DNA from: a virus
Lineage: Duplodnaviria > Heunggongvirae > Uroviricota > Caudoviricetes
IMG/VR virus record: IMGVR_UViG_3300035208_003871
Length of the DNA stretch: 64,000 nucleotides
Direction: 5' to 3' (one strand)
Shown here: in pieces, positions 6,168 through 52,872 of the stretch
How positions within the stretch are numbered: the first letter of the stretch is position 1
Layout of the letters: the number at the start of each line of letters is the position of its first letter
Translations under genes and position numbers: made by a program
Notes under the pieces: generated by a model
Databases searched by the model: none
What the model saw: only the letters and a program-made list of their open reading frames with translations
What the model was told of the DNA's origin: nothing

Positions 6168-9100
6168 TTATCTGGTATATGTTTTTCTGATTATACCTTC
6201 GATGATAGATTCACTCTGCAATCTTCTAATAACTTCGGTTGCAATCTCGTTCTTATCAGATCCACTTACCGATATCACAATTTCCATTTGCTGCGGAGTT
6301 GATTCTTTTTGTGATATCTGAGTGTTTACTTCATTCGAAATTGCTTCATTTAATGCAGAAACCGATTGTGGTTCTTTCATAAATGATGGAGTATACTCAG
6401 CTTCATTAAACTTTCCAGCATATGCCCAATTGGTATTATTTAGACTTTCAATAGTCGCTTCTTGATTTGTAGTTAGTGCATCTGTCATTGTCTTGACGTT
6501 ATCGGCCATTGCTTGCTGAGAATCTACAAGTGTTTGCATTTGTCCCATTCCATCATACTCTCCTTCTCCATATGTTTGATTTGCTAAATAATTAGTTGTT
6601 TTTGGCATTAATATACTTGCAAGATATGGTCCAAGGAATGACATTCCCGGAATTGGAACTCCGGGCATTCCCGCAGTCATGTATAAATCTGCTGCTGCTA
6701 TCGGGTTCTTTCCAATTTCATTTGCTGTATTTCCAGCCAATTCCATACCCGCTTCGCCAAGTCCTATAAGTGAAGTTCCTGCACCAAATATACCTTCAAT
6801 ATCAAAGTTTGCAAGATTTGCAGCAGCATTATTAAGACCCATTACCAGATCTCCAACACCTTCTGATACATTAGCTTCACCCAATGGACCCAATCCGACT
6901 TTCAAGTTAGTAGATACAATTGAATCCCTTAAACTTTGATTTCCTTTCTCAAATGTATCTCCGACATCTTCGAGAGTTTGTGAGAAATCAGTTCCTAATA
7001 ATTTATCAGTGGTCTTTGATCCAGTTCGTAACATTGCACCGATACTTGGACCTGCCTCGAATAAATCTTTATTCTGATTCATTAAGTCCCGCATTTCTTC
7101 TTCGGATTTACCAAATGTTTCTCCCCATCTCTTCATTCCTTTTGCATATCCAGCAGTTGAAAATCCACCTGTAAGTAACCCGGTAAAAGTATTATATTTA
7201 CCATTATCACTCATCATATCATTGAGTGGACGACCAGATCTGAATTCCTTTGATGCTTGTCTAGATTCTAGGAAATGAGCACCGGCAAACACAGCAGGGT
7301 TTCCTGCAAGCATATTTGCCTTTGTAAAACCAGTTCCTAATATAGCAGATGTCTTTGATAATCCAGATAATAAGAACTTTCTACCAGCTGCAGATTTACC
7401 AGCTGCTTCAGCTGCTTCTACACCAATTTTCAATCCAGTTTTACCACTTAACCATCCCAGACCTTTTTCAATTACAGGTGCAAGTTTCTGACCTCCCCAC
7501 TGAAATCCACGACCCCCATAACCAACTGCTGCATTTTGACCACGAACTTTTGCAATGTCGAGAGCAACTTCATATGGATTTCCACCAGAAGTAATTGCTT
7601 TTCTTGCTGTTGATCCATAATCGTATGGAACATCAGATCCCCATACTTCACGAGGAGTCCATATTTGTTTTAAATTTCCTCCAAATCGTGGTTTATTTAC
7701 TGATAATTTAGATGGTGTATGTGTTTGTGTTAAATCAAGTGATCCTTTTAAATAGTCTTCGACTTGATCATGTGTTACAAAATTAATATCTTTGTATTGA
7801 TCTCGAAGAGTTTGTATCGCGAGTTCTTGTTCTTTATTTACTAAAACTGCTCCAATATCTAATTTACCAGTTTTATCAACTAAACTTTGTCCCGGCTTAG
7901 ACATTAATGTAAATGGTCCAGTTTTATATGCTCCACCTGCTGCTCCTAAATATCCAGAACCGGGAGAAAGATCAGTTAATGGTGCTGTATGAAATTTCCT
8001 TGATTTATCAATTCCTTGCGTAAGGAAATAATCTAAACTTTTAAGTGGATCTCCCTTTAATATTCCATGTGCATCTACATTTAACCCAAGACTTTTTTGT
8101 TTTAGTCTTTGTTCTAATAACAATCCTTCTGCTTCATTTTCAACATAATTATCTGGATCACTTAATATTAATTGACGATTTTTTTGTGCAAATGAAGAAA
8201 GAGCTTTACCAAATTCCTTTTCAAATTCATTAAATGATTTTGTAATAGGTGCAGATCTTGTTACATCGATTGGTGATGGACCCGGAGCATATGTATATTT
8301 ACCTTCTCTCCATCGTGTTGCATAATCTGTATTTGACCGTCCAGTTGGTCCATAATCTTTAATATCCTGTAACTCACGGTATCCCGCGTGATGATAATAA
8401 ATATCTTGTATAGTTGCCCCACGACCTAGACCTGATATTCCAATAGATCTTCCAATGTTTGAATTTGCACTTATAATTGCAGATCCAGCAGATTTAACTA
8501 ATGTTGTTCCTGTGTTCTTTATTGCTTCAACTAATCCACCTGATGTTAATGCAATCGCAAGATTTCCTGCACCTTCTTTTATTTTTCCAGCAGTAGTATA
8601 AATAATATTAAATGAATCTAATATTCCTTTATGCACAAATTCTGTTGCATCGCCAACTTTGATTACAAAATTTCCCCATGCTCCGGAAATACTTTGCGCC
8701 ATATTTGCAATTACTGTCTTTATAATTGATATAACTGAGTTTGGATTTGGAACTGCAATTGGTGTTGATGCAAGTGGATTTGCTGCTAGTGGAGATGCTG
8801 TTGATGTAGCTGAAATCGGAGTCTCTTCTTCTGGCACCATTGGGAAATTTCCCGGAACAACAGAAAATGGACTTGGTGTTGCTGCAACAGGAAGTCCGGT
8901 TGGAGTTGTAATTGGGCCTCCTGATATTGGAGTTGGTGTAAATGATAATGCATTTAATAGTCTATCAATTATACCAATGTCGAATGGAAATCCACCTTCT
9001 CCTTCTTTACCACCATTTCCAAATCCAGTAACCCAATTTCTTACATAAACACCAATTCCGTCACCATCATCTGCACGTGCAAATATGTCATATTCTTTAC

Positions 9101-12100
9101 GAGTTGTGACATTTCCTTCATCTAAAGTTCTAAGTGTTTTAGTGAATTGCAAATTATCGTTAGATCTTTTAATTTCGTTATTTGTAATTCCCATAAATGA
9201 TGGAAGTGTCTGTCCAGTCCCGGTGTAATAACCTTTTAGACCACCGCGTGGTATAACCGTTTCACCAGATTGAAGTGCTGCCACGGTGTCATCAGGGGAT
9301 CCCGGAACCATGTCATATGCTGGTTTTGGAATTACACCCCCACCTACATATCCCTTGACTCCTGTAAGAGCTCCGTATGCACCTCCAATTATATCTGAAG
9401 GTTTGAGGATCTTTGTTTGTCCATTTGTAAAGAATTCAATTGCTCTCGCTGCAACTTCCCAAGCTGCTGCTAATGCAATTCCAATTCCAACTAACCATAA
9501 TGCAGCAACTCCCATTGCAGCAAGTCCAGCAGTAACACCGCCAAATACTGCGGTCAATTCGGCAGCAGTTCCAGCGACTGCAAGAAACAGTGATAATCCA
9601 GATGTTAGTGGCTGAATTAACATCGTTGCTACCATTAAATAAGCAGCCCATTTAACTAAAGGTTCTAGCCATCCTTTATCTTTAAAGAAAGTAAGAACGC
9701 CGACAAATAATTTTAATCCTTCTACCATTGCCGGTAATGCAGCTGCTCCTGCTTTTAACAATTCCTTAAATGTTTTAAGTGTATCTGAATTAGTAAGATC
9801 TTTAAATAATCCACGAATTGAGCTACTCAATGCATCAGTAAATTCACGATCTTTAAACATCGCCGTTGCTAACGATGTCATTCCAAGAGCAAATGTTGCC
9901 TGTACACCTTGAGCATTTTTCCAAGCGGTTACCATATCTTTCTGACTTGTACCAGCCTGACCCATTATTTCATTGACTTTTGATAATCCTCCACCAAATG
10001 CCTGAACATATGCAACATTTTTAAACATCCCGTTAAGATCGGATAAGGAAGCCATTACTCCACTGAGTGCTCCCTGCAGTTGCATGAACACACCCATAAG
10101 CGAGAAGTATACTCCCATTGAACTCATTGAAATGGAAGCAGCTTTCCATGAAAAATCTTTGGATAATTTACTAATTTTCATCGGTGTAGTTGCTTGCAGT
10201 CCACCACCTTTTACTTGTTCAGTTCCTCGTGTAAATGTTGCCTGTTTTGCACCAGCACCATGCCGTCCAATATCTACATTAAATGTTTCTTCAAACTTAT
10301 CCTGTAACCCGGTAATTTCTTCATCGGTTTTACCGTATTGTTTCTTGATCTCTTCACGCATTCCAGCAAATCCAACAGTTATATTGGATCTTGCGGCTTT
10401 CAGACCATCTTCTGTTTCGTAATCAATGATATCAGCGAAATCAAGTTTCAGGTATTTACTTGCATTTACATCACCGAGTTCAGTTTGAAGGAAACTTTCC
10501 ATCGCTGTCTTTATTCCACCCTGTCTTCGCGCTATATTTTCCCTTACTGTATTTATCTGTTCTTCTGGACTAACTGTACTAGATGTGGCACCGGGATGAA
10601 GTTGTCCATAACTAACATCCATCGTTGTCTGACCAGTTGTGCTGACAATTTCATCCATCTGTTCATTCAGGAACTTAGTCATGAATTTTTCATATGCACC
10701 ACTCATATCAGATCCGCGAACAACTCTGCGCATCGCTCTTAATGGCGCAATGTTTTTAATTCCTGCTATTATTTTATTTCCACCAACATAACCTTCCCGA
10801 GTACGTTCCGCACCCATCTCATATAATGGTCTATTTGCGTAACTGTATGTTGTACTTCCAGTTTTCATTGATGGATCTAATTCAAATCTCCAATCTGAAC
10901 CATATAAAGAACGCATTCTTTCGTTGTGAGATGATTGTTTAGCACCTGCAAGGTAATTTTTCTTGTGTGTATCTTGTTTTTCTCTGCGTGCTCTGTGAAT
11001 ATTTGAAATTTCTATACGTGCCTCGTCTTCAGCATCAGTTACACGACGCTCATATTCTCCAGATATCTGCTCACGATAAGTTTTAGTTCCTTTAATTGGT
11101 TGTTCTAATCCTGAACGCAATGCACCCTGTATATACTTAAATTTTTGAAGAATTTGTGGAGAAACATTCTGCCCACGTCTCTCATTAAATGTTCCAAAAT
11201 CTTCAGTAACGAATCTCTGTGGAACATCCATCATATCTTTAATAATTTTACCTTGTGGTGTTTCAAGGAATCCACTAACAGGTTCCATTAATTTTGAGAA
11301 TTTATCCTGACCTTCAAATTGAGTATCTTTTCCGTATTTTCCAAGAACGCCCTTGTACAAATTGGATGAAATATTCGCAAATGCTCTTTTAGATTGTTGA
11401 ATATCAGTAATTGATTGCTGCCAATTAAGTAATCTCGATGGATGAGTTCCTTTTTTACCGGGAGGGAAAGGTGCCAATGGTCTGTCCTCAGGCATAAGCA
11501 TACCCATGTTTTCAACTGCTCCACCCCATGGCTGTGCCTGTACAGCGTTTATAGCAGCTTGTGTAAATGGACTACGTTTAGATCTTTGGATACGCTGACG
11601 CTGCTGTATCATTACTTCGGGTTCTGGTAATGTTACACCATGTGTCAATCCTTCAGTTGGAAGTCCGTAATTTGGAAACTCTCTTGTAGTAAGTTGCGTT
11701 CGTCTATCATCGGGTATAAATTTATACATGTTAGATAAATCAGCCGCAAATTTTGGTTGTAATTTTAATAATTCCCGCTGCTGACGTTTGATATTTTCCA
11801 TTAACTGATTAAATTTAATAAATGGACTATTGCCTTCTGGTTCGTTATATCCACCCAAATATGGAACTGCACTCATACCACTGTGAGGAATCTTAACAGT
11901 ACTTTCTTTTGCTCCAAGTAAACTTTCACTTGGATAATTTCCAATATCGGGTCCACCCCAAGATCTTCGTTCTCCGGGCAATACCATTGATGGATTAATC
12001 ATCCCAATTGAGTCACCACGTTGTGAACGTCTAATAATTTTTGCAGATTCTTTATCTAAATTTACAAATGAAGATGTAACTCTTTTAATAGCAGTACCCA

Positions 12101-15100
12101 TTGTACTTATATCATGAGTAATATCACTTGATGGAATTGTGGTAGGTTTATTACCCATATTATAACGGCTTAGTCCAGATTCTCTAAAGTTCTTAACTCC
12201 TTGTGCAGTCTGGAATTTTCTCATTAATGAATATGGATCTTGTAAACTACCTTCTGTAATATCCTTACGTAAGAAATCTGAAATTTTCGGACTTTCTAAT
12301 GTATCTATATTTCTAAGTTTATCAATTGAAACTGACCCAAATGGATTCTTTTTTCCTCTAGATGCATTACGTAATGCACGTTCCATCCTGTAAGCCTCGC
12401 GAACATCCATTCCCATTTCATCACGCATGTAACGAGTTGGTTCATAAAATCCCATTGATCTCGTTGGATCTTCAATTACACTTGCTGGTAATGGTTTCTC
12501 AAATGATCGTCTCATTACAGGTGAATTTAATGCAGCGACTAAGTCCGGTCTCACAGGGAATCTTCCATAACGTGAACTTGAACCAAGTCCAGTCTGACGA
12601 TGTTTACGTAATCCTGATAATCCAAAGTCATATCTCGAAGTTCCTCTTGCATATCCGGGAATTCCACCTTGCATAAACCCGGGAATACTTCCACCAATTG
12701 ATCTTCTTGCACCTATTTTACCAGATCCTTCTAATGCTTTACGCATTTTATAAGACATAATGTAAGCAATGTCATTTGATGGATTTGTATCTCCCATTGA
12801 TGTTCTAACGGGTAATTCATCAGAAGTTGGAGATCCAGTAGTTTCAAATTCGTAAGCTCCAGAACTTCCAACTCCACCTAAAAGTGGCAATATTGATTTT
12901 CCTGAATTTGCCATTTGACGAATAGGTTCAAGAATTCCAATTCCACCCATCTTATTAACTTGTGATTTCGTTAATCCAAGCTCTTCATCTGATACGCGAA
13001 TTAAATCATTTGGAATTTCACCATATGGTGTACCTTTTGCATATCCGGGAATTCCACCTTTCGCAAAAAATATACGATGTATATTATTACGCAAATTACT
13101 AGCTTTAAGAATGCTACTACGTTCTGAAGATTCCCCAAAATGAGGCGACATATAATTAGAAAACTTAGATCCGAGTTTACTTCGCTCACCGGGAGTAGAT
13201 CCGCCAAGTAAACCACTTTCAAATGATTGAGCTAATGTTTCAGCGATCCCACGTCTTTGAGCATAAACTTCTTGATCATCTTTACTTACTAAATGATTAT
13301 TTTTATATGTCGTAGTATAATAACTACGTTGGGTGGGACTAAATTGTTTATATGTAGATTTTCCATATGGCGTCAATTCATCTTTCATAGTTTTATAATA
13401 ATATGGAATTCTATCTCGCATAAACTCAAAGTCTTTATGATCTCCAAGTAAATTACGTTCAACTCTTGCATGAAACATTTCATGTAAAAATGCTTCTCTA
13501 TATCTATTATTTTGCAAAGGTGTTATATTTACATAATCTTCATTTGGATTATATGATGATGTTTTTTCATTTTGATGTCTTACTCCAATTGGAGTAAAAT
13601 CATAATTGAACTTTATTCTATTTGAATTAGACAATACCCCGGCTAGTGCAGTTACACCATTTGATAAATTACGAGATTCTGATTTATAGCTAGTTGCACC
13701 ACTTGATGCAAATGGATTTGAAAAACTTGGGGAATTTCCAATACCAAATAAAGGTTTATTAAATATTTTAACTTGTTTTAATAATTTATTTCGTAATTTT
13801 GAAAAATCTCCACGTGATGTAAGTTCATTTCTAGACAAAATATGAGAATATTTTTTTCTATAATTATTATATTCAGTATTTTGTTTTCTATAAAACATTG
13901 AATTATTTCTAAATAACGGCGATGTATCTAATCTTCCGCCTTTTGCAAATTTGCGGCTTTGTAACATATATCGCAAATATGCTTCTGATTTTGGACCATT
14001 TACTTCAGCTGATAAATCCTGAAATGATTTGTGTGGATTGTGTGGGTAGATGTAACTTTTATTATTGTTTAATCCTATAGCGGTTTCAAGTTCACCACCA
14101 AGTGCAAATCCACCGTAGCGATCTGGGTGATACAATCGATCAAACCAACCACTTAATCCAGTTAAATCAAAACTATCGGTTCCGGGAATTGAGCTCATAC
14201 TCTGACCTTGATCTACGGTTGATGAAAATGCAGACTGACCCGGATTTGCTAATTGCTGAAACGGATCGACTGATTGTCTACGGAACATATCATCGCGAAC
14301 CATGTGTCCCATATGACGAACATCACGGTTATAAAATGCACGTACCTGAGCACCCATTCCCGGAACTCCTCCACGTGCAAATCCAAAGTTTTCCTTAAGT
14401 TGACCACGTAATTTCAGTAATTTTTTCACTCTCTGTTCATGAGATCCCTTGTATTGCCAATCTCCTTCTCTTTCAATGAAACTTTCTGCCCATTCCTTTG
14501 ATTTATTTATATCTTCAATTCCCGGAGTTGAAATGCTCTGAGCTAGCATTTCATTTAACCCATGATATGCCACGGTATCAGGATCGTATCCTTTTGCAAA
14601 GAGTTCATTTTGAGTATCTTTTGCATATTGCGGTAATGTTTTATTAAATATGTTTCTTAAATTTTGCACTCCGCCAGCCTTTTCTGAAAATTCATCAATC
14701 ATACCCGGAGCTATTGATTGATGAACCATTTCGTGTTCAACTGTACGAGAATCTACATTTCCAACTAAATTAATCATATTTGTAGTTGGATCATAATGAG
14801 AACGATCAACATTTGGATCTGGTGATGTAGCATATGAACGAATTCTATTTACAGGTGCAGCATAATGAATACCTAATCCGGGATTTGCATACACTTTAGC
14901 AAATAAATTTTTTTTCGCTTCTGCTATCGCGACCTGATTATTTATAGATCCTCCACGTGCAAACATTGGGATGCTACCAACCATGCTTCCGATGCCTAAT
15001 AATCCTGCGGTACCACCTACTGCAGTTGCAATGTCAAATCCATGAGTTTTCACGAAACTTTTTGCACGTGAAAATATTGATGGTGATGATTTAAATGATT

Positions 15101-16148
15101 TAACTGGTGTACTTGGTATAATTGGTGCATTTTGTTTTGACGGTTTATTATATGCTTTGATTATGGCATTTAATTGAGATGATCCCATTGTTCCACTAAA
15201 ACCGTCATTTACTGTTGGTTTCTTTATTAATTTTTGTGTATATGGTTTTGATGGACGTGCCATTGGTAATACTGCTGCTAAACTCGCACCATTAATATTA
15301 CTAAGATTTCCGAATGGCTGTCTATTTGCTGCCCGGTTTTTATGAGTTACACTACCCATTCCACGCTGCATTGCACTTAAAATTGCTGTGGTTTCTGCCT
15401 CCTTAACAGCAGCCATTGTCGTAACAGTGTGCATTGCACGTTCAGATGATTCCCTTGCACGCTGTTTTCTGATCACGCCTGCTGGTATAACTGGAGTTGC
15501 TTTTGCCCTTGATTCTACTAACCCACTAATTTGTTTAAGATATTCGGTCTGCGACTTAGCTACCCCTTGTAAATGAGTCGCAGATTCAACAAATCCCGGT
15601 GGAAGATTTTTTCGCGCCTCGTTAATCATCTTCTTTTCGTAACGAGTTGTATTTATTAATTTACCAATTGTATGAGCAGCAGTAGATACAGTATTGAGTT
15701 TTTGTGCTGCTCTTTCATACATAGTATGCGACTTGTTTTGAGAAGTTGATGGATGAATATTTCCCATAGATGGATCGCTTAATACATCTTCATACTGCTT
15801 GTTTTTAGAAGTAAACTGTCGAATACGAGCATTATAACCTGCACGTTTAACGGCCTCTACACCATGTTTCTCAACTGCTTTTTTAACTTTTGCTTCCGCT
15901 AATGCATTTTCAGTATGCATTTTTGTGAATGCACGTCTTGTATTTTCGTAGTCAGTTTTACCTAGAGGAGATCCGGTTTTCGCTGTATTACCAATTGGTG
16001 AAGCGTGAATTAACCACTCTAACTCTTCGGGATTTGCATCTCCCAATTTTCTTATTAAATCACGTGTATTTGGAAACCCAGAGTCCTTAAGAAAATCTAC
16101 TATTTTCTTAGTATAATTTTTATATGGGTCAGTATAAGGGGCAGACAT
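6168..16148 (-). CDS. Tail tape-measure protein, 3326 aa, with two embedded HExxH metallopeptidase-like motifs.
   Basis: A single 9981-nt ORF downstream of the chaperone pair. It has a long hydrophobic, Gly/Ala-rich central segment typical of tape-measure proteins (approx. nt 9160-9640) and a Pro/Thr-rich linker (approx. nt 8750-8950). Two HExxH motifs are present: VEHEMVHQ at approx. nt 14715-14745 and FLHEMFHARVE at approx. nt 13458-13493. A motif F-[AM]-[KRQ]-G-G recurs five times along the protein. Confidence 0.85.
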   Translation of the reverse strand: MSAPYTDPYKNYTKKIVDFLKDSGFPNTRDLIRKLGDANPEELEWLIHASPIGNTAKTGSPLGKTDYENTRRAFTKMHTENALAEAKVKKAVEKHGVEAVKRAGYNARIRQFTSKNKQYEDVLSDPSMGNIHPSTSQNKSHTMYERAAQKLNTVSTAAHTIGKLINTTRYEKKMINEARKNLPPGFVESATHLQGVAKSQTEYLKQISGLVESRAKATPVIPAGVIRKQRARESSERAMHTVTTMAAVKEAETTAILSAMQRGMGSVTHKNRAANRQPFGNLSNINGASLAAVLPMARPSKPYTQKLIKKPTVNDGFSGTMGSSQLNAIIKAYNKPSKQNAPIIPSTPVKSFKSSPSIFSRAKSFVKTHGFDIATAVGGTAGLLGIGSMVGSIPMFARGGSINNQVAIAEAKKNLFAKVYANPGLGIHYAAPVNRIRSYATSPDPNVDRSHYDPTTNMINLVGNVDSRTVEHEMVHQSIAPGMIDEFSEKAGGVQNLRNIFNKTLPQYAKDTQNELFAKGYDPDTVAYHGLNEMLAQSISTPGIEDINKSKEWAESFIEREGDWQYKGSHEQRVKKLLKLRGQLKENFGFARGGVPGMGAQVRAFYNRDVRHMGHMVRDDMFRRQSVDPFQQLANPGQSAFSSTVDQGQSMSSIPGTDSFDLTGLSGWFDRLYHPDRYGGFALGGELETAIGLNNNKSYIYPHNPHKSFQDLSAEVNGPKSEAYLRYMLQSRKFAKGGRLDTSPLFRNNSMFYRKQNTEYNNYRKKYSHILSRNELTSRGDFSKLRNKLLKQVKIFNKPLFGIGNSPSFSNPFASSGATSYKSESRNLSNGVTALAGVLSNSNRIKFNYDFTPIGVRHQNEKTSSYNPNEDYVNITPLQNNRYREAFLHEMFHARVERNLLGDHKDFEFMRDRIPYYYKTMKDELTPYGKSTYKQFSPTQRSYYTTTYKNNHLVSKDDQEVYAQRRGIAETLAQSFESGLLGGSTPGERSKLGSKFSNYMSPHFGESSERSSILKASNLRNNIHRIFFAKGGIPGYAKGTPYGEIPNDLIRVSDEELGLTKSQVNKMGGIGILEPIRQMANSGKSILPLLGGVGSSGAYEFETTGSPTSDELPVRTSMGDTNPSNDIAYIMSYKMRKALEGSGKIGARRSIGGSIPGFMQGGIPGYARGTSRYDFGLSGLRKHRQTGLGSSSRYGRFPVRPDLVAALNSPVMRRSFEKPLPASVIEDPTRSMGFYEPTRYMRDEMGMDVREAYRMERALRNASRGKKNPFGSVSIDKLRNIDTLESPKISDFLRKDITEGSLQDPYSLMRKFQTAQGVKNFRESGLSRYNMGNKPTTIPSSDITHDISTMGTAIKRVTSSFVNLDKESAKIIRRSQRGDSIGMINPSMVLPGERRSWGGPDIGNYPSESLLGAKESTVKIPHSGMSAVPYLGGYNEPEGNSPFIKFNQLMENIKRQQRELLKLQPKFAADLSNMYKFIPDDRRTQLTTREFPNYGLPTEGLTHGVTLPEPEVMIQQRQRIQRSKRSPFTQAAINAVQAQPWGGAVENMGMLMPEDRPLAPFPPGKKGTHPSRLLNWQQSITDIQQSKRAFANISSNLYKGVLGKYGKDTQFEGQDKFSKLMEPVSGFLETPQGKIIKDMMDVPQRFVTEDFGTFNERRGQNVSPQILQKFKYIQGALRSGLEQPIKGTKTYREQISGEYERRVTDAEDEARIEISNIHRARREKQDTHKKNYLAGAKQSSHNERMRSLYGSDWRFELDPSMKTGSTTYSYANRPLYEMGAERTREGYVGGNKIIAGIKNIAPLRAMRRVVRGSDMSGAYEKFMTKFLNEQMDEIVSTTGQTTMDVSYGQLHPGATSSTVSPEEQINTVRENIARRQGGIKTAMESFLQTELGDVNASKYLKLDFADIIDYETEDGLKAARSNITVGFAGMREEIKKQYGKTDEEITGLQDKFEETFNVDIGRHGAGAKQATFTRGTEQVKGGGLQATTPMKISKLSKDFSWKAASISMSSMGVYFSLMGVFMQLQGALSGVMASLSDLNGMFKNVAYVQAFGGGLSKVNEIMGQAGTSQKDMVTAWKNAQGVQATFALGMTSLATAMFKDREFTDALSSSIRGLFKDLTNSDTLKTFKELLKAGAAALPAMVEGLKLFVGVLTFFKDKGWLEPLVKWAAYLMVATMLIQPLTSGLSLFLAVAGTAAELTAVFGGVTAGLAAMGVAALWLVGIGIALAAAWEVAARAIEFFTNGQTKILKPSDIIGGAYGALTGVKGYVGGGVIPKPAYDMVPGSPDDTVAALQSGETVIPRGGLKGYYTGTGQTLPSFMGITNNEIKRSNDNLQFTKTLRTLDEGNVTTRKEYDIFARADDGDGIGVYVRNWVTGFGNGGKEGEGGFPFDIGIIDRLLNALSFTPTPISGGPITTPTGLPVAATPSPFSVVPGNFPMVPEEETPISATSTASPLAANPLASTPIAVPNPNSVISIIKTVIANMAQSISGAWGNFVIKVGDATEFVHKGILDSFNIIYTTAGKIKEGAGNLAIALTSGGLVEAIKNTGTTLVKSAGSAIISANSNIGRSIGISGLGRGATIQDIYYHHAGYRELQDIKDYGPTGRSNTDYATRWREGKYTYAPGPSPIDVTRSAPITKSFNEFEKEFGKALSSFAQKNRQLILSDPDNYVENEAEGLLLEQRLKQKSLGLNVDAHGILKGDPLKSLDYFLTQGIDKSRKFHTAPLTDLSPGSGYLGAAGGAYKTGPFTLMSKPGQSLVDKTGKLDIGAVLVNKEQELAIQTLRDQYKDINFVTHDQVEDYLKGSLDLTQTHTPSKLSVNKPRFGGNLKQIWTPREVWGSDVPYDYGSTARKAITSGGNPYEVALDIAKVRGQNAAVGYGGRGFQWGGQKLAPVIEKGLGWLSGKTGLKIGVEAAEAAGKSAAGRKFLLSGLSKTSAILGTGFTKANMLAGNPAVFAGAHFLESRQASKEFRSGRPLNDMMSDNGKYNTFTGLLTGGFSTAGYAKGMKRWGETFGKSEEEMRDLMNQNKDLFEAGPSIGAMLRTGSKTTDKLLGTDFSQTLEDVGDTFEKGNQSLRDSIVSTNLKVGLGPLGEANVSEGVGDLVMGLNNAAANLANFDIEGIFGAGTSLIGLGEAGMELAGNTANEIGKNPIAAADLYMTAGMPGVPIPGMSFLGPYLASILMPKTTNYLANQTYGEGEYDGMGQMQTLVDSQQAMADNVKTMTDALTTNQEATIESLNNTNWAYAGKFNEAEYTPSFMKEPQSVSALNEAISNEVNTQISQKESTPQQMEIVISVSGSDKNEIATEVIRRLQSESIIEGIIRKTYTR

Positions 16149-16530
16149 AAAATAGGATTATATAATTAACCTTATATAAAAGAATATCAATTTACGGGAA
16201 CCATAAACTATAAATATAGGTAAAAGATCGATTTAGTAAATGGAAGCGCGATGCATAAATAAAATGGAGAATAATTGAGATCCCTTTTACAAGAGATCAT
16301 GAGGTAATAATGTAGAACTTGAGATGGGTGGAAAGAAAGATAAAACACCCATCAGAACGATACTCCGGGGATGAGATGAGACAGAGATTATCCAATTTAC
16401 TGTACAGTGGCACTCGATTTATGTTAGCTCCTCTGGATCGGGTGACAGATATTGTGTCATGGCGAATGGTTCCTGTGGCAGAACTTCTCTCCTATGACAC
16501 ATACATATTAGATGTTCAACAATATAAAAG

Positions 16531-16747: not shown

Positions 16748-16981
16748 TCACATGTTTCCTCTCATCAGAGGTCCATATGATTTGTTCCAAAAATGCATCG
16801 CAATATCGATATCGAACATGATATGATCCATCCAATCAGGATCATCAAAGATTTCATGTGCAAAACATCCCTTATGCCATGCTAAAATTCCCAGAACCGT
16901 TTTCCATTTGGCATCATCATCGAGATCCCCTTGAGGATCAAGTTGACAAAAACCGGGATCTGTCGCCCACTCAGGCAACAA
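16748..16981 (-). CDS. Downstream (T-like) part of the tail assembly chaperone, probably expressed by a programmed frameshift from the upstream G-like ORF.
   Basis: There is no ATG start; the ORF track translates a TTG as M. The frame is open for about 13 codons upstream into the end of the 133-aa ORF, in the +1 (equivalently -2) frame. It sits at the canonical position immediately before the tape-measure gene. Confidence 0.4.
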   Translation of the reverse strand: MLPEWATDPGFCQLDPQGDLDDDAKWKTVLGILAWHKGCFAHEIFDDPDWMDHIMFDIDIAMHFWNKSYGPLMRGNM

Positions 16982-17372
16982 GCCGAAACAAGTCTTGACG
17001 CACGTTCATTGTGTTGAACGAGGCTAAGAATATCACCCACTGATCTTCACCGGGTAAATCATCTATTTTGTGTGAAATAAGAATGTTCGGTAATACTTCT
17101 TCTAACCACTGATCAAAAACTTCCTGCATACGTTCTTGATCTGCCGGAGAAACGACTTGCTCGCCGTTTTCCTCGATAGTTGACTTTGGCATTGCCTTTG
17201 TTAACAATCTGAAATGAAGTGCTCCAAGTTTTCCTCTTGGTTTTTCAATCTCATATAAATCGTTTCCTGTCTCTATCTTCAAGGTACGAGATTTTGGATC
17301 GATACGAGGTTTGTTATCCTCAACAGACTGATTTTCTACAGAATGTTCGCCTGATGGTTTTCTTGGTGCCAT
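16971..17372 (-). CDS. Tail assembly chaperone (G-like).
   Basis: A 133-aa acidic protein between the major tail protein and the tape-measure gene. Its 3' end overlaps the next ORF, which lies in another frame. Confidence 0.5.
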   Translation of the reverse strand: MAPRKPSGEHSVENQSVEDNKPRIDPKSRTLKIETGNDLYEIEKPRGKLGALHFRLLTKAMPKSTIEENGEQVVSPADQERMQEVFDQWLEEVLPNILISHKIDDLPGEDQWVIFLASFNTMNVRQDLFRLVA

Positions 17373-17456: not shown

Positions 17457-18344
17457 TTATGAGAAAATAATCTTGCTGCTTGCAGTCGTTTCTGCACGCC
17501 AATTAATTGTTTTCTCAAACTTATTACGTCCGGTAACATTGGCTGTAGCATCACTAATTTTACAATTTGGAATAGTAATTGTTCTGATTACAGATGTTCC
17601 GGTTGGTTCAGCTAATAGAATTTCTATTTCGCCAAATTCAATATCGTTTGCATTTGAAGACTGAACCACTCCGGGAAATGGATCGTCTGTGCTTAATGCA
17701 TTTTGCAAATCTGACCATTCTTTTGGTCCAAGTCCAATAGATCCAGAAACCGTAACTGCTCCACTCTGAACATAATCATCAAGATATTCGTGTCCAAGAA
17801 TGTAGTAATCCTGATCAATTGGTCGCTCTACCCTGACCGAAATGTTCATACATTTAATTGCAACAGAATTTACTGTAATTGTAGTGTTATAAAACACACT
17901 TACACTATTGGAATATGTTGGAGCAACACTAAATGAGTGAGTATCTGCACTAGCATCTCCACCAATCCAGTTAAATGATACTTTAGCAAAATCCTTTGTT
18001 TGAACATTCAAGTCCATAGAAGTAATCATAACAGATGCAACTTTGTATCCGTGACCAAACTCATCTGAAACATAAATATTGTTAAACCAAGCACCAGAAG
18101 CTGGCAATTCACCAAGTCCACTGGTTACTGCCTGTCCAAAAAGTTTTTCTACAATTACATCAAGATCGGTTCTGTATATTCCATCAATTGTTCCACTTGA
18201 GAGATAAGTTCCACCGAAAAGCTTAGATTCTCCAACGGCAGACATTGTTTCTTCAGCAATCAGATTTCTTGCAACGCTCATGCTAACACCGCTAACGGGT
18301 AGCAAAGTTGTACCATTTACTGAAAGACCTCTGTATGTTGCCAT
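17457..18344 (-). CDS. Major tail protein, paralogue B (295 aa).
   Basis: It lies immediately upstream of the chaperone genes. It shares motifs with the 379-aa neighbour: IDQDYYILGHEYLD versus MDQDYFYIGSEFLQ, and the C-terminus TGRNKFEKTINWRAE versus TGRNQFEKTVNWKAQ. Confidence 0.55.
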   Translation of the reverse strand: MATYRGLSVNGTTLLPVSGVSMSVARNLIAEETMSAVGESKLFGGTYLSSGTIDGIYRTDLDVIVEKLFGQAVTSGLGELPASGAWFNNIYVSDEFGHGYKVASVMITSMDLNVQTKDFAKVSFNWIGGDASADTHSFSVAPTYSNSVSVFYNTTITVNSVAIKCMNISVRVERPIDQDYYILGHEYLDDYVQSGAVTVSGSIGLGPKEWSDLQNALSTDDPFPGVVQSSNANDIEFGEIEILLAEPTGTSVIRTITIPNCKISDATANVTGRNKFEKTINWRAETTASSKIIFS

Positions 18345-18374
18345 TTCATACCTCCTCTAAAAAAGAGGATAGGT

Positions 18375-19514
18375 TTACACGTTGTAAACCTCAATATAGA
18401 ACTTATCTACATCATTAATCTGAGCTTTCCAATTAACTGTCTTTTCGAACTGGTTACGTCCAGTAAGTGAACGTGCCATTTCAGTAAGTTTTGCAGTATT
18501 ACAGGTAATTCTTGCAACCTCAGCAGATCCAGTTGGTGTGTGAAGAACTACAATAAACTCTCCTGATGGAATTGCATTTGCAAGTACTGTTGTGGCACAT
18601 GTGTCCGGATCAACTGAACCAAAGAATTCACGCTTTCCCTGATCAAGAGTATTCACACCAAGTGTAGTCTCTCCAGCAAGCATAGTACGTACACGCTGCC
18701 AGTCACCAGCACCAAGGGTAATAGTCCCTCCTAAATCAGTAAGACCGTTGTAGTACAATCCCTGTAAGAACTCACTACCAATGTAGAAGTAATCCTGATC
18801 CATTGTACGTGCAAGGGTCATCGTAAATCCTTTACACTTCAATGTTTCGTAAACACTAGATCCTTGGGGTTTCCACTTTAGAACCGCATTATAGAAAATT
18901 GCTGGTTCTCCAGTTACAGTGTTATTTGGTGAGTTATTTCCGGCATCGTACACTTCAGCTCTACGTGCAATCCACTGGAATGTTGAACGACTGTATTCTT
19001 TAACATTGAGTGTAACTTCCATGTTAGTAATACCAACACCACGATAAATCGTAGTGGTTCCGTGAACATCGTTAGATCCAGAAGTATCAGTTGCCTGTTC
19101 ATCCACAATTTTTAACGCAAGTGCCTGTGGAACCATTGCGAGTTCATATCTTAATCCTGCGCCGTGAACACAGCTTGATGCTATATTCACAGGATCTTGT
19201 GTACCAAGAGCTCCAAGAAGTAATCCTGAAGTTGCGAAATCCCAACCACGGAATGCTGCTTCAAACTGTCCATTAGCACCGTAAGTACCCCCGTAGATAC
19301 TTGCTGCTGCTACCTGATCAATAGATTCTTCGATAATAACATCACGATTTGCATTATCTGAAAAAGAATTAACCCGGATAGATTTGAAGGCAGGTGTGTG
19401 AGTAGCTCCTGAAACATAAGTTAAATAATCATTAGCAGTACTAAATCCTGCTGTAATTACATAATCGTTGATTTCCTCTTCATCATATGCGTATGAATCA
19501 GTAGTAATCGCCAA
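18375..19514 (-). CDS. Major tail protein, paralogue A (379 aa).
   Basis: It is a paralogue of 17457..18344. The annotated start is a TTG, so the true start is uncertain. An AAGGGGGA sequence lies upstream. Confidence 0.55.
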   Translation of the reverse strand: MAITTDSYAYDEEEINDYVITAGFSTANDYLTYVSGATHTPAFKSIRVNSFSDNANRDVIIEESIDQVAAASIYGGTYGANGQFEAAFRGWDFATSGLLLGALGTQDPVNIASSCVHGAGLRYELAMVPQALALKIVDEQATDTSGSNDVHGTTTIYRGVGITNMEVTLNVKEYSRSTFQWIARRAEVYDAGNNSPNNTVTGEPAIFYNAVLKWKPQGSSVYETLKCKGFTMTLARTMDQDYFYIGSEFLQGLYYNGLTDLGGTITLGAGDWQRVRTMLAGETTLGVNTLDQGKREFFGSVDPDTCATTVLANAIPSGEFIVVLHTPTGSAEVARITCNTAKLTEMARSLTGRNQFEKTVNWKAQINDVDKFYIEVYNV

Positions 19515-29877: not shown

Positions 29878-30333
29878 ATGTTAATCATGCTGTATCACTT
29901 CATCGGTCACAAAATCGGAGATATTCAAAAAGATATGAGATCGAGAGCAATAAAAAATACTAAATTTGACCCTTGGAACGATCCGGGAAACATAATGATA
30001 CAAGCTATTTTAGGATATCTTACTAAATTAGAAACAAACTATGAAAATTATGGAGTAATTGTATATTTTAAAAAAGGATTTGTCATCATAGGTGCATTAC
30101 TATACTCAATAAACGACAATAAATGTACAATTCATCGATTAGGAGTTACAAAAGAATATAGAAGACAAAACATTGGTACTAAAATGGTAGAATTTTTAGA
30201 ATTATACTTAAAAATAGTTGATGCTAAAGAAATATCATTATATTCTTCTGATGAATTATATACTATAAAATTCTATGAATCTCTTGGATTTAAAACCGTT
30301 TATTCTACAAATATGATAAAATATCTAAAATAA
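29878..30333 (+). CDS. GNAT-family N-acetyltransferase (151 aa).
   Basis: An acetyl-CoA-binding motif A (IHRLGVTKEYRRQNIGTKMVEFLE) and the typical C-terminal YESLGF. Confidence 0.7.
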   Translation: MLIMLYHFIGHKIGDIQKDMRSRAIKNTKFDPWNDPGNIMIQAILGYLTKLETNYENYGVIVYFKKGFVIIGALLYSINDNKCTIHRLGVTKEYRRQNIGTKMVEFLELYLKIVDAKEISLYSSDELYTIKFYESLGFKTVYSTNMIKYLK

Positions 30334-46019: not shown

Positions 46020-46560
46020 ATATAGTAACACGATTATATAATTGGTGATTTATATTAATAATTTTATATTATGTGGATTATATAATCTGAATATTATAAA
46101 AAAACTTTTATAAAATTATTTTTATTGAGTTGTACTTATTTATATTTTCGTAGCAGTGATATCACTGATTTTTATGTGATGTGGAATATATTAATAGGAA
46201 TATATTCAGGTTTTTATATTTTTGTTAATATAATTTTAGGGATTATATAATGGAGCTGGTTATATATTCCACACTATTATAAAACTATTTTTATAAATCT
46301 GTTATTATAAATCTATTATTATAATTATCAAATTATAAATCCATTATTATATTTCTATTATTATATAATGCATAGATAAATATTAAGTTTTTTATATTGA
46401 TTTCTTTATATTATTTCTTTTATATTACGACTAATATATTATTACTTTAATATCACTTTTAGTATAATTTATAGAGTATATTTTATGGAATATAAAATTA
46501 CTTATATAATTACTCTGATTATATATTAACAGGTAAAATATAACTGTTTGTCATATAATG
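46020..46560. repeat. An extremely AT-rich stretch with short direct repeats (TTATTATAAATC x3-4), which could be a DNA-unwinding element.
   Basis: Composition and the repeats at 46295-46345. Confidence 0.5.
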
Positions 46561-52171: not shown

Positions 52172-52261
52172 AATTAAAACAATATTTTTTAATTCAATAC
52201 TTTTATTCGATTTTTAATATAAAAACATTAATATAAAAACATTAAAATAAAACTATTAAAA

Positions 52262-52392
52262 TATTGAATGTACAAATATAAACAGTAATGTATTAAAATG
52301 TACATCAATGTATAGAAATGTACATCAATGCATTAAAGTATTCACCAATGTACAAAAATGTACATTATTGTATATATTTATACATTCAATAT
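52262..52392. repeat. About eight direct or inverted copies of AATGTACA(T/A) in an AT-rich spacer.
   Basis: AATGTACAAATA...AATGTACATCAATGTATAGAAATGTACATCAATGCATT...CAATGTACAAAAATGTACATTATTGTATA...TACATTCAAT. Confidence 0.65.
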
Positions 52393-52872
52393 ATTAAAAC
52401 TTTTATAAAAATATTAATATAAATAGTTAATAAATATAAATTGCAATTATATAAAAAGAATATTATAAAATTATTAATATATAAAATGTAATATATTTTT
52501 AACATTATATAGAGATCTTTATAAAAATAAATATATAAAAACAATTTTATATTAATAAAAAGTTATTCAAAAGTACTTAACAAAAAATATGGTAAAAATT
52601 CTCAAAAAACTAAGGTTACAGGCAAATTTATTATATTTAAATATTTGGATATTACTAAGGTTCATGGAAATTTGTTAACCCTTTTTAGTTAACTTTTTAA
52701 GTGAGTAAATAATGAAAATTACCCTATTACCCGGCAAAAAAGTTACAAGTTTAAAGTTTTTAATTAACCTAAGGTTACATGAATTATTTCTCATAACTCA
52801 TACCCAAATAATTATAAAAATTTACATTTTAATAATTAATTATTTATGGTTATAGAAACATACTAATTATAC

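Follow-up and report, generated by a model that had tools for sequence, protein, structure and literature searches.

What does a phage do with a single tail protein of 3,326 residues, and what fills such a length? The question is raised by one gene in a 64,000-nucleotide stretch of DNA, here called the window, from an uncultivated virus of the class Caudoviricetes (IMG/VR record IMGVR_UViG_3300035208_003871). The gene occupies positions 6168..16148 of the minus strand, after a tail tube gene and a chaperone-like pair. It is a single uninterrupted open reading frame (ORF) of 9,981 nt, or 3,326 codons and a stop, with an ATG at the first possible start. An identical protein is on record at NCBI, JGI and ENA, on contigs of ~155 kb, where it is labelled ‘hypothetical protein’. 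An earlier reading made from the sequence alone had described one unbroken frame encoding a tape measure protein (TMP), and the frame does read through from its ATG. The explanation towards which the evidence leans is that the gene encodes a polyvalent TMP carrying effector modules, in an uncultivated long-tailed phage: a conserved chassis combined with exchangeable cassettes, two of which are ArdC-like zincins. The chassis would be built from an N-terminal domain with a glycine zipper at its end, a hydrophobic core, a unit of the form ‘FAxGG...LSxGE[FY]V...LN..AxGG’, a low-complexity linker and a C-terminal part. A varying series of cassettes, each opened by the motif [FY]-A-x-G-[GT], would break it up, for the most part on the N-terminal side of the core.

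Identity of the giant protein and its family

An exhaustive HMMER search with residues 1–1200 against 1.84 billion representatives returned only two relatives, P0002 (4,495 residues) and P0003 (2,955 residues). A tblastn search with residues 1–3000 against cultured phages gave no match, a word-indexed protein search matched the window protein only to itself, and single-protein searches for loci in IMG/VR returned nothing, whether made with the TMP or the tube protein. The only route that recovered further relatives was an alignment of the hydrophobic cores of the three proteins, which pulled loci from IMG/VR, from the metagenome-assembled genomes (MAGs) of GTDB and from metagenomes. After removal of duplicates there are at least 13 distinct uncultivated relatives, P0002 included, each with a giant ORF (1,690–4,863 residues) in the same gene order; the family comparisons below use 15 sequences, the window protein among them. 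The core is 29–62% identical to that of the window protein (E = 1e-27 to 1e-97), while the length that precedes it varies from 761 to 3,262 residues. The giant ORF is not an artefact of assembly, since unbroken ORFs just as long recur in the same gene setting in 13 distinct relatives; gene fusion is likewise ruled out by comparable ORFs on 13 independent contigs.

Gene order identifies the giant ORF as a phage TMP, as does its homology to relatives with matches to TMP profiles, in agreement with the sequence-only reading. Upstream of it on the minus strand lie a tail tube gene of 295 residues (17457..18344; PF18906 Phage_tube_2, 48.2 bits against a cut-off of 27; PHROG 290) and a pair of overlapping ORFs on the same strand, one of 133 residues (16971–17372) and one of 77 residues in the +1 frame (16748–16981). 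The succession of tube gene, overlapping pair and giant ORF is kept in 13 relatives. In five of the relatives (L005, L021, L020, L003 and L009) the segment that follows the core matches five TMP PHROGs (among them phrog_25241, E = 1.6e-11, and phrog_3547, E = 3.9e-9). The matching element is a unit of ~50 residues, [FY]AxGG-x(8-12)-D-x-[IV]-x-A-x-L-S-x-G-E-[FY]-V-I-N...L-G...L-D-x-L-N-x-[FY]AxGG, for which Pfam has no model. Searched with one such unit, 342 cultured phages gave matches in genes annotated as tape measures. A profile built from nine units matches three solved TMP chains, namely gp16 of mycobacteriophage Douge (E = 3e-24, with copies at residues 962–1011 and 1410–1460), that of 8rk3 (E = 1.6e-8) and, weakly, lambda gpH 732–785 (HFATGG...GYATGG; E = 0.2).

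The window protein shows the same arrangement of a hydrophobic segment followed by an FAxGG...GE[FY]V unit. Hydropathy places hydrophobic windows at residues ~2137–2238, within the conserved, transmembrane-like TMP core at residues 1996–2260 (9369..10163, minus strand, as for all segments of the gene given below), which is 29–62% identical to all 14 other family sequences. Directly after the core stands a degenerate copy of the canonical unit at residues 2263–2305 (YVGGGVIPKP...DDTVAALQSGETVIP; 9234..9362), which aligns with FANGGVV...DDTIITAKAGEVV of P0003. The hydrophobic core and the Pro/Thr linker that had been noticed from the sequence are both located, the linker being a low-complexity stretch at residues ~2404–2462 (8763..8939). 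The linker keeps its position after the post-core unit among relatives and changes in composition: it is rich in Pro and Thr in the window protein, consists of KPE repeats in P0002 and of Asp/Lys repeats in P0003. The C-terminal region at residues 2463–3326 (6171..8762) is partly conserved in P0002 and P0003 and presumably engages the tail tip, by analogy with the C termini of the lambda, T5 and Douge TMPs, which lie in the complex of the tail tip (baseplate hub).

At the other end, a conserved N-terminal domain (residues 1–395; 14964..16148) is kept in P0002 and P0003 and is internal in L003, L006 and L009. Its last part, a glycine-zipper-like hydrophobic segment at residues 372–395 (DIATAVGGTAGLLGIGSMVGSIPM; 14964–15035), is conserved and abuts the first joint. 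The segment (GGTAGLLGIGSMVGSIPM) recalls the TMP-like glycine zipper by which the type VI secretion system (T6SS) effector Tde1 crosses membranes (PMC10240207). Between the cassettes described below and the core lies a middle region (residues 1171–1995; 10164..12638) with a counterpart only in P0002 and partly in L004.

Some further features of the family may be recorded here. The window protein contains no cysteine, and giant relatives of 1,700–4,900 residues contain 0–3. The largest relative, L006 (~4,862 residues), has a post-core extension of ~2,700 residues, and its residues 3879–4043 (locus nt ~15986–16480) hold five FG[SEQ]GG[IL][LF] repeats spaced at exactly 41 residues. The contigs L001 and L007–L009 were assigned to MAGs that bear the labels Dehalococcoidales, Methanospirillum, Syntrophaceae and Saccharibacteria; the labels contradict one another, so they are regarded as binning artefacts and are not used as evidence of the host.

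The F-A-x-G-G motif and the cassettes it bounds

The sequence-only reading had counted a five-fold F-A-K-G-G repeat and left it as a periodicity with no assigned function. All five copies of F-[AM]-[KRQ]-G-G are present, at residues 396, 590, 734, 1028 and 1158 (intervals of 194, 144, 294 and 130 residues), against an expectation of 0.024 (P(≥2) = 0.0002 in shuffles). A sixth motif, FALGG at residue 681, had been overlooked, as had the half-motifs YAKGT at 1036 and YARGT at 1166, which stand 8 residues past the last two motifs. The repeat is better described as the opening of the TMP unit, as found in lambda gpH and Douge gp16, which serves here as a joint between interchangeable cassettes. 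[FY]AxGG both opens and closes the canonical unit, and bare copies also occur in the giant family; the strict form is found 1–10 times per family protein, against 0.07–0.2 expected.

Several comparisons among relatives bear on this role. When the regions preceding the core are cut at the motifs, the resulting pieces cluster into types that occupy differing positions in different proteins; one cassette type, for example, is found at residues 1–180 of L003, 642–818 of L008, 1455–1634 of L018, 687–859 of P0002 and 741–923 of P0003. The ends of BLAST segments shared between proteins fall within 15 residues of a motif in 49.7% of cases, compared with 12.8% ± 2.0% at random (maximum 18.1% in 200 trials). 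The closest view is given by L015 and L018, which are 95–98% identical in two of three shared blocks and differ by whole inserts that start and finish exactly at the motif; ahead of the core the two differ in length by 666 residues. At the first, GK-YANGG-LIPRYAKGTSDKIPFNF in L015 corresponds in L018 to GK-YANGG-QIPS|FAKGG...(230 residues)...FK-FANGG-QIPRYAKGTSDKIPFNF; at the second, SK-FATGG-LTLNNPIRVSDGELAIP in L015 corresponds to GK-FATGG-SIPRY...(427 residues)...KG-YATGG-STLNNPIRVSDGELAIP. The comparisons show the motif to be the exact joint for the gain, loss and shuffling of cassettes. The joints are usually preceded by G or K, and in the window gene the coding sequences of some share short stretches of identical DNA: 15 nt between the joints at residues 396 and 590 (TTTGCACGTGGAGGA; 14949–14963 and 14367–14381) and 17 nt between those at residues 1028 and 1158 (AAGGTGGAATTCCCGGA; 13053–13067 and 12663–12677). 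Such microhomology could drive in-frame recombination and the gain and loss of cassettes.

A comparable arrangement is seen in Douge gp16, where an NlpC/P60 endopeptidase domain (E = 3.4e-6 to solved NlpC/P60 proteins) stands between two units, so that an embedded enzyme flanked by units is already an existing TMP design. In the window protein the joints delimit four cassettes and one further module. Cassette 1 (residues 396–589; 14382..14963) opens with FARGG and contains the first zincin-like module. Cassette 2 (residues 590–680; 14109..14381), opening with FARGGVPG, is shared with P0002 (605–686), and cassette 3 (residues 681–733; 13950..14108), opening with FALGG, is short; neither has a recognisable function. 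Cassette 4 (residues 734–1027; 13068..13949) opens with FAKGG, contains the second zincin-like module and is orthologous to residues 968–1282 of P0003. The conserved module that follows (residues 1028–1170; 12639..13067) lies between the double joints FAKGGIPGYAKGT and FMQGGIPGYARGT; within it is a degenerate TMP unit (DLIRVSDEELGL...), and the module is conserved in P0002, P0003, L004, L015 and L018.

The cassettes of the relatives include further enzymes. A GNAT acetyltransferase in P0003 scores 22.8 bits against Pfam Acetyltransf_1 (cut-off 20.7), and P0002 has a cassette resembling S-adenosylmethionine-dependent methyltransferases (Methyltransf_23, E = 1e-4). An HD phosphohydrolase cassette matches Pfam at E = 0.002 over nearly the whole model, with H..HD..H..D invariant in five copies; in the PDB all nine of its matches are, by their entry names, HD-domain or HD-superfamily phosphohydrolases (best E = 0.0026). 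An ADP-ribosyltransferase-like cassette is assigned tentatively, from weak Pfam matches (ADPrib_exo_Tox, E = 0.018; NarE, E = 0.044) and the conserved Y-x-G and E-x-E; a PDB profile search with it gave no support. P0003 carries the GNAT, HD, ADP-ribosyltransferase-like and zincin cassettes, to which P0002 adds the methyltransferase-like one. To judge from these similarities, the relatives’ cassettes are shown to belong to the enzyme types known from the polyvalent proteins that phages inject. A single chain with a number of unrelated catalytic domains is seen in the relatives, the window protein having two recognisable zincins only.

Joints of this kind might also be places where the chain is cut. 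According to this alternative, which survives best among those considered and is possible rather than likely, the F-A-x-G-G joints are proteolytic processing sites and the giant TMP is a polyprotein, cut during tail maturation or after ejection to release its cassettes; the same unit would then mark the cleavage of lambda gpH into gpH* and gpHC. The joints are rich in Gly and lie exactly between modules. Lambda gpH is itself cut in its Gly-rich C-terminal region, at a site and by a protease that have not been identified, with gpHC estimated to start at ~690 (PMC12617516), and the lambda unit at 732–785 falls in the N-terminal portion of gpHC that is not resolved. In T5 pb2 the cut lies between the hydrophobic stretch and an enzymatic motif, which is the relative position of the unit here, and polyvalent proteins have been proposed to be processed by their own zincin domains (PMC5512222). 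However, no phage provides direct evidence of cleavage at the motif, and the lambda unit lies ~40 residues downstream of the estimated cut. No zincin accompanies the joints in eight of the 15 family sequences, so the zincin cannot be the general agent acting on them, and the motif could equally well be a structural turn or an anchor. A wider proposal, a little more speculative still, makes the F-A-x-G-G unit a general ‘cut-and-join’ element of TMPs, serving both as recombination joint for effector cassettes and as TMP processing site. If it were true, giant TMPs would be true injected polyproteins, and the cleavage of lambda gpH, for which site and protease have been unidentified since 1974, would be located.

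The two HExxH modules

Both HExxH motifs that had been noticed in the window protein are present, ~10 nt or less from the positions first given: HEMVH at residue 472 (nt 14721–14735) and HEMFH at residue 889 (nt 13470–13484). Composition alone predicts 0.037 such motifs (P(≥2) = 0.0007 in 20,000 shuffles). Residues 446–597 and 860–1035, which surround them, are 22.5% identical over 182 aligned columns (pairwise E = 1e-5). The two share a series of motifs, N-R-I..Y..P, S-x-Y-[DN]-P-x-x-[ND]-x-[IV]-N, H-E-M-x-H, [ND]-E-L, G-x-x-E-x-L-A-Q-S and S-T-P-G, and both close with F-A-[RK]-G-G-[VI]-P-G; by this shared pattern they are diverged paralogous cassettes. Module 1 has the strand SHYDPTTNMINL at residues 450–461, HEMVH at 472–476 and candidate third zinc ligands in NELF (514–517) and NEMLAQS (532–538); module 2 has the strand SSYNPNEDYVNI at 864–875, HEMFH at 889–893, DELT at 923–926 and AETLAQS at 969–975. 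Seven further copies are found in the family, one each in P0002, P0003, L004, L017 and L018 and two in L015. The nine copies are 15–30% identical and have an invariant H-E-x-x-H and an invariant Tyr ~20 residues upstream of it; by inspection, E-x-[LFA]-[AS] follows downstream in seven of the nine, in the form E-x-L-A-Q-S in both window modules.

The nearest relative of these modules appears to be the zincin of ArdC and the polyvalent proteins rather than a peptidoglycan hydrolase. One PDB profile search gave matches to anthrax lethal factor, PPEP-1/Zmp1 and Spartan; in another, made with the family copies, ArdC came first (E = 0.094), ahead of serralysin-type protease C and IrrE. All these matches are sub-significant, but they agree in theme. 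The ArdC alignment pairs aYYNPTGDYIHM...LAHEATH with gkYdpnsnnInl...llHEmlH. Profile-to-profile comparison with hhalign was made between the seven-copy alignment and an ArdC-family alignment of five plasmid genes annotated ‘zincin-like metallopeptidase domain-containing protein’. It gave a probability of 83.4% (E = 8.4e-6, score 39.9, 54 columns), whereas controls scored a mean of 9.7 after column shuffling (maximum 18.0) and 18.2 ± 2.2 when HExxH was kept in place (maximum 24.3). As the controls that keep HExxH score far lower, the similarity to ArdC extends beyond the pentapeptide. Both modules thus resemble, at the level of sequence profiles, diverged paralogues of an ArdC-type zincin-like domain. 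The Pfam model PF18818 MPTase-PolyVal reached 11.4 bits (E = 0.36), with module 2 only, below its curated cut-off of 27.5.

The earlier suggestion of embedded metallopeptidase or lytic domains therefore divides. Paralogous zincin-like domains are supported by the comparison with ArdC, and a candidate third-ligand Glu, in E-x-L-A-Q-S, is present downstream in both modules; a peptidase profile is approached by the PF18818 match and not reached. The lytic part fares worse. Under it the HExxH domains would be cell-wall metallopeptidases that breach peptidoglycan at the tail tip, as in T5 pb2 and mycobacteriophage TMPs, and this is improbable. It is true that wall hydrolases embedded in TMPs are well known, that Douge gp16 has NlpC/P60 between two such units and that T5 pb2 has a muralytic metallopeptidase motif. 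However, ten overlapping segments showed no Pfam similarity to M23, M15, lysozyme or NlpC/P60 at E ≤ 10, and none appeared in the PDB searches; the nearest relatives are instead intracellular zincins of the ArdC, SprT and IrrE types. The sister cassettes of relatives (GNAT, methyltransferase-like, HD and ADP-ribosyltransferase-like) need cytoplasmic cofactors or substrates, and the cassettes lie N-terminal to the membrane core, at the end that leaves the tail last.

That the extra sequence only lengthens the tail, with cassettes as tolerated recombination filler and enzyme motifs as relics, is the least probable reading, since, for all that tail length scales with TMP length across embedded domains in Douge (0.159 nm per residue), that cassette content varies freely among relatives and that recognisable domains are absent from most of the window protein, nine otherwise divergent copies all keep H-E-x-x-H and the upstream Tyr, the HD residues are invariant in five and the GNAT cassette exceeds its Pfam cut-off, a conservation of catalytic residues that points to selection on catalysis.

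A proposed role of the tape measure protein as carrier

In the polyvalent TMP proposed here, the functions of ruler and carrier would be combined. As an extended chain the protein would fill the lumen of the tail and still set its length. The Douge TMP has 1,699 residues, including its embedded NlpC/P60 domain, and a tube of 269.6 nm, or 0.159 nm per residue (PMC13033339). At the same ratio a tail of ~500–530 nm is predicted for the window phage and, because the embedded domain of Douge counts toward tube length, a tail of ~0.5 µm remains a live prediction. The very long tail and the embedded domains that the sequence-only reading had set out as alternatives are, on this analogy, not mutually exclusive. 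During infection the TMP would leave the tail before the DNA does, and its hydrophobic core would insert into the membrane and contribute to a channel across the envelope, as in lambda, T5 and Douge. The N-terminal cassette string, placed between the core and the DNA end and so positioned to follow into the cell, would then enter and refold. Next, the zincins may either cut the chain near the glycine-rich joints, in the manner proposed for polyvalent proteins, or act against a protein of host defence, a role also suggested for the ArdC protease domain. That domain is implicated in restriction evasion in the recipient cell. Both the entry of the cassettes into host cells and the cutting at the joints are inferred.

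Several observations weigh against this account. Whole-protein scans with Pfam, PHROG and NCBIfam gave no match to the window protein, so its status as a TMP rests on gene order and transitive homology, and none of its cassettes besides the two zincins has a recognisable function. The zincin assignment is below database significance in each single search (PDB, E = 0.09; Pfam, E = 0.36), and the hhalign alignment ends before the third-ligand helix. AlphaFold models, built for module 1 together with its paralogue and for module 2 together with its paralogue and the orthologue from P0003, have a predicted local distance difference test score (pLDDT) of 37–38, too low for the models to bear on the putative fold or the candidate third ligand. 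The HExxH cassette is present in seven of the 15 family sequences and the joints in all 15. Finally, the tail genes downstream of the giant ORF have no recognisable homologues.

The surroundings of the gene are those of a tail module. On the minus strand the order is terminase large subunit, portal, protease, scaffold/decoration-like protein, further head genes, a 379-residue protein, tail tube, chaperone-like pair and giant ORF, followed downstream by ORFs of 161, 593, 551 and 172 residues; this is the standard succession of tube, chaperone, tape measure and distal tail. PHROG scans of the downstream tail genes in three relatives, and of the upstream 379-residue protein, returned nothing. The overlapping ORF pair, which recurs as ORFs of 132 and 76 residues upstream of the giant gene of P0002 (4894–5515 in the coordinates of L027), probably encodes tail assembly chaperones made by programmed frameshifting, in the +1 direction instead of the usual -1. 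Two tube-like genes, of ~380 and ~290 residues, are adjacent in the window (17457–19514, minus strand) and in L027 (2796–4836); on the P0002 contig both have Phage_tube_2 matches on record, one weak and one faint. Because no sheath gene was recognised and two tube-like paralogues are present, the tail is probably non-contractile, and a contractile one was rejected as the default. The phage is far from cultured ones, its terminase being at most 24% identical to any in the collection.

Elsewhere in the window, an ORF-free stretch of ~380 nt (16149–16530) lies directly 5' of the ATG of the giant gene, with no obvious Shine-Dalgarno sequence and no Rfam match; Rfam gave no match over the whole window, and no tRNAs were found. 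The direction of transcription switches near 30–31 kb. In the region of this switch a stand-alone GNAT acetyltransferase gene (29878–30333, plus strand; PHROG 3810/1249, E = 1e-11) represents an enzyme class that is also found as a cassette inside the TMPs of relatives. Many small plus-strand ORFs at 42–46 kb coincide with an unusually strong GC skew of 0.42–0.57. Clusters of AT-rich tandem repeats with periods of 14–40 nt, at 46275–46453 and 52214–52496, occupy the lowest-GC part of the window (~25% GC) and could be iterons of a replication origin.

The protein has its counterparts among enzyme-bearing TMPs on the one hand and injected polyvalent proteins on the other, both of them known kinds. 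With Douge gp16, T5 pb2 and TMPs bearing TM4-type motifs it shares its gene position and the succession of hydrophobic core and FAxGG...GE[FY]V unit; in Douge gp16, as noted, the embedded enzyme is bracketed by two units. In these phages the TMP fills the lumen of the tail and is expelled at infection. These known enzyme-bearing TMPs, however, have 850–1,700 residues and a single wall-degrading domain C-terminal to the hydrophobic stretch, whereas the giant family has up to ~10 joints, several cassettes other than wall hydrolases placed mostly N-terminal to the core, and lengths that reach 3,326–4,863 residues. Lambda gpH (853 residues) likewise has one unit, between FATGG and YATGG (732–785), after a hydrophobic Gly-rich stretch, and is cleaved in that general region; it differs in having no cassette, its cleavage site is unmapped and its match to the unit is weak (E = 0.2). 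With the polyvalent proteins that phages and conjugative elements carry, ArdC included (PMC5512222), the family shares the stringing of unrelated enzymes (GNAT, ADP-ribosyltransferase, methyltransferase, phosphohydrolase, zincin) in a giant virion-associated polypeptide, and its zincin and that of ArdC both have the ‘Y-x-P-x-x-D-x-I’ strand and the HExxH helix. Here, by contrast, the scaffold is a tape measure and the joints are a TMP-specific motif, and the window zincins are below the Pfam threshold. Polyvalent effectors have been described as packaged by phages into the capsid head, in a text that does not mention TMPs (Iyer et al. 2017; PMC5512222). The bacterial effectors Sle1 of Streptomyces (PMC13277306) and Tde1 of the T6SS (PMC10240207) are also alike in that TMP-derived segments carry exchangeable domains into or across membranes; unlike the ruler of an infectious phage, they are loaded into tail-like particles or a T6SS, and the likeness drawn here is one of arrangement. 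The literature searches turned up no TMP for which such cassettes are described. What is particular to this family is a multi-cassette, non-lytic load within the ruler and the use of the FAxGG unit as a joint.

TMPs have usually been treated as rulers with at most one wall-degrading domain, and polyvalent proteins as cargo packaged in the capsid; the giant family would join the two. Its ruler would be a modular carrier, the load of which changes between close relatives by the exchange of cassettes at a joint of five residues. Lambda gpH and mycobacteriophage TMPs have the joint as well, so any function established for it in the giant family could be put to the test directly in model phages, the cleavage of gpH included. 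If the cassettes are indeed delivered, the lumen of the tail would be a second route by which phages bring anti-defence or takeover enzymes into the cell, and the giant TMP would provide a natural scaffold for engineered protein delivery by phages.

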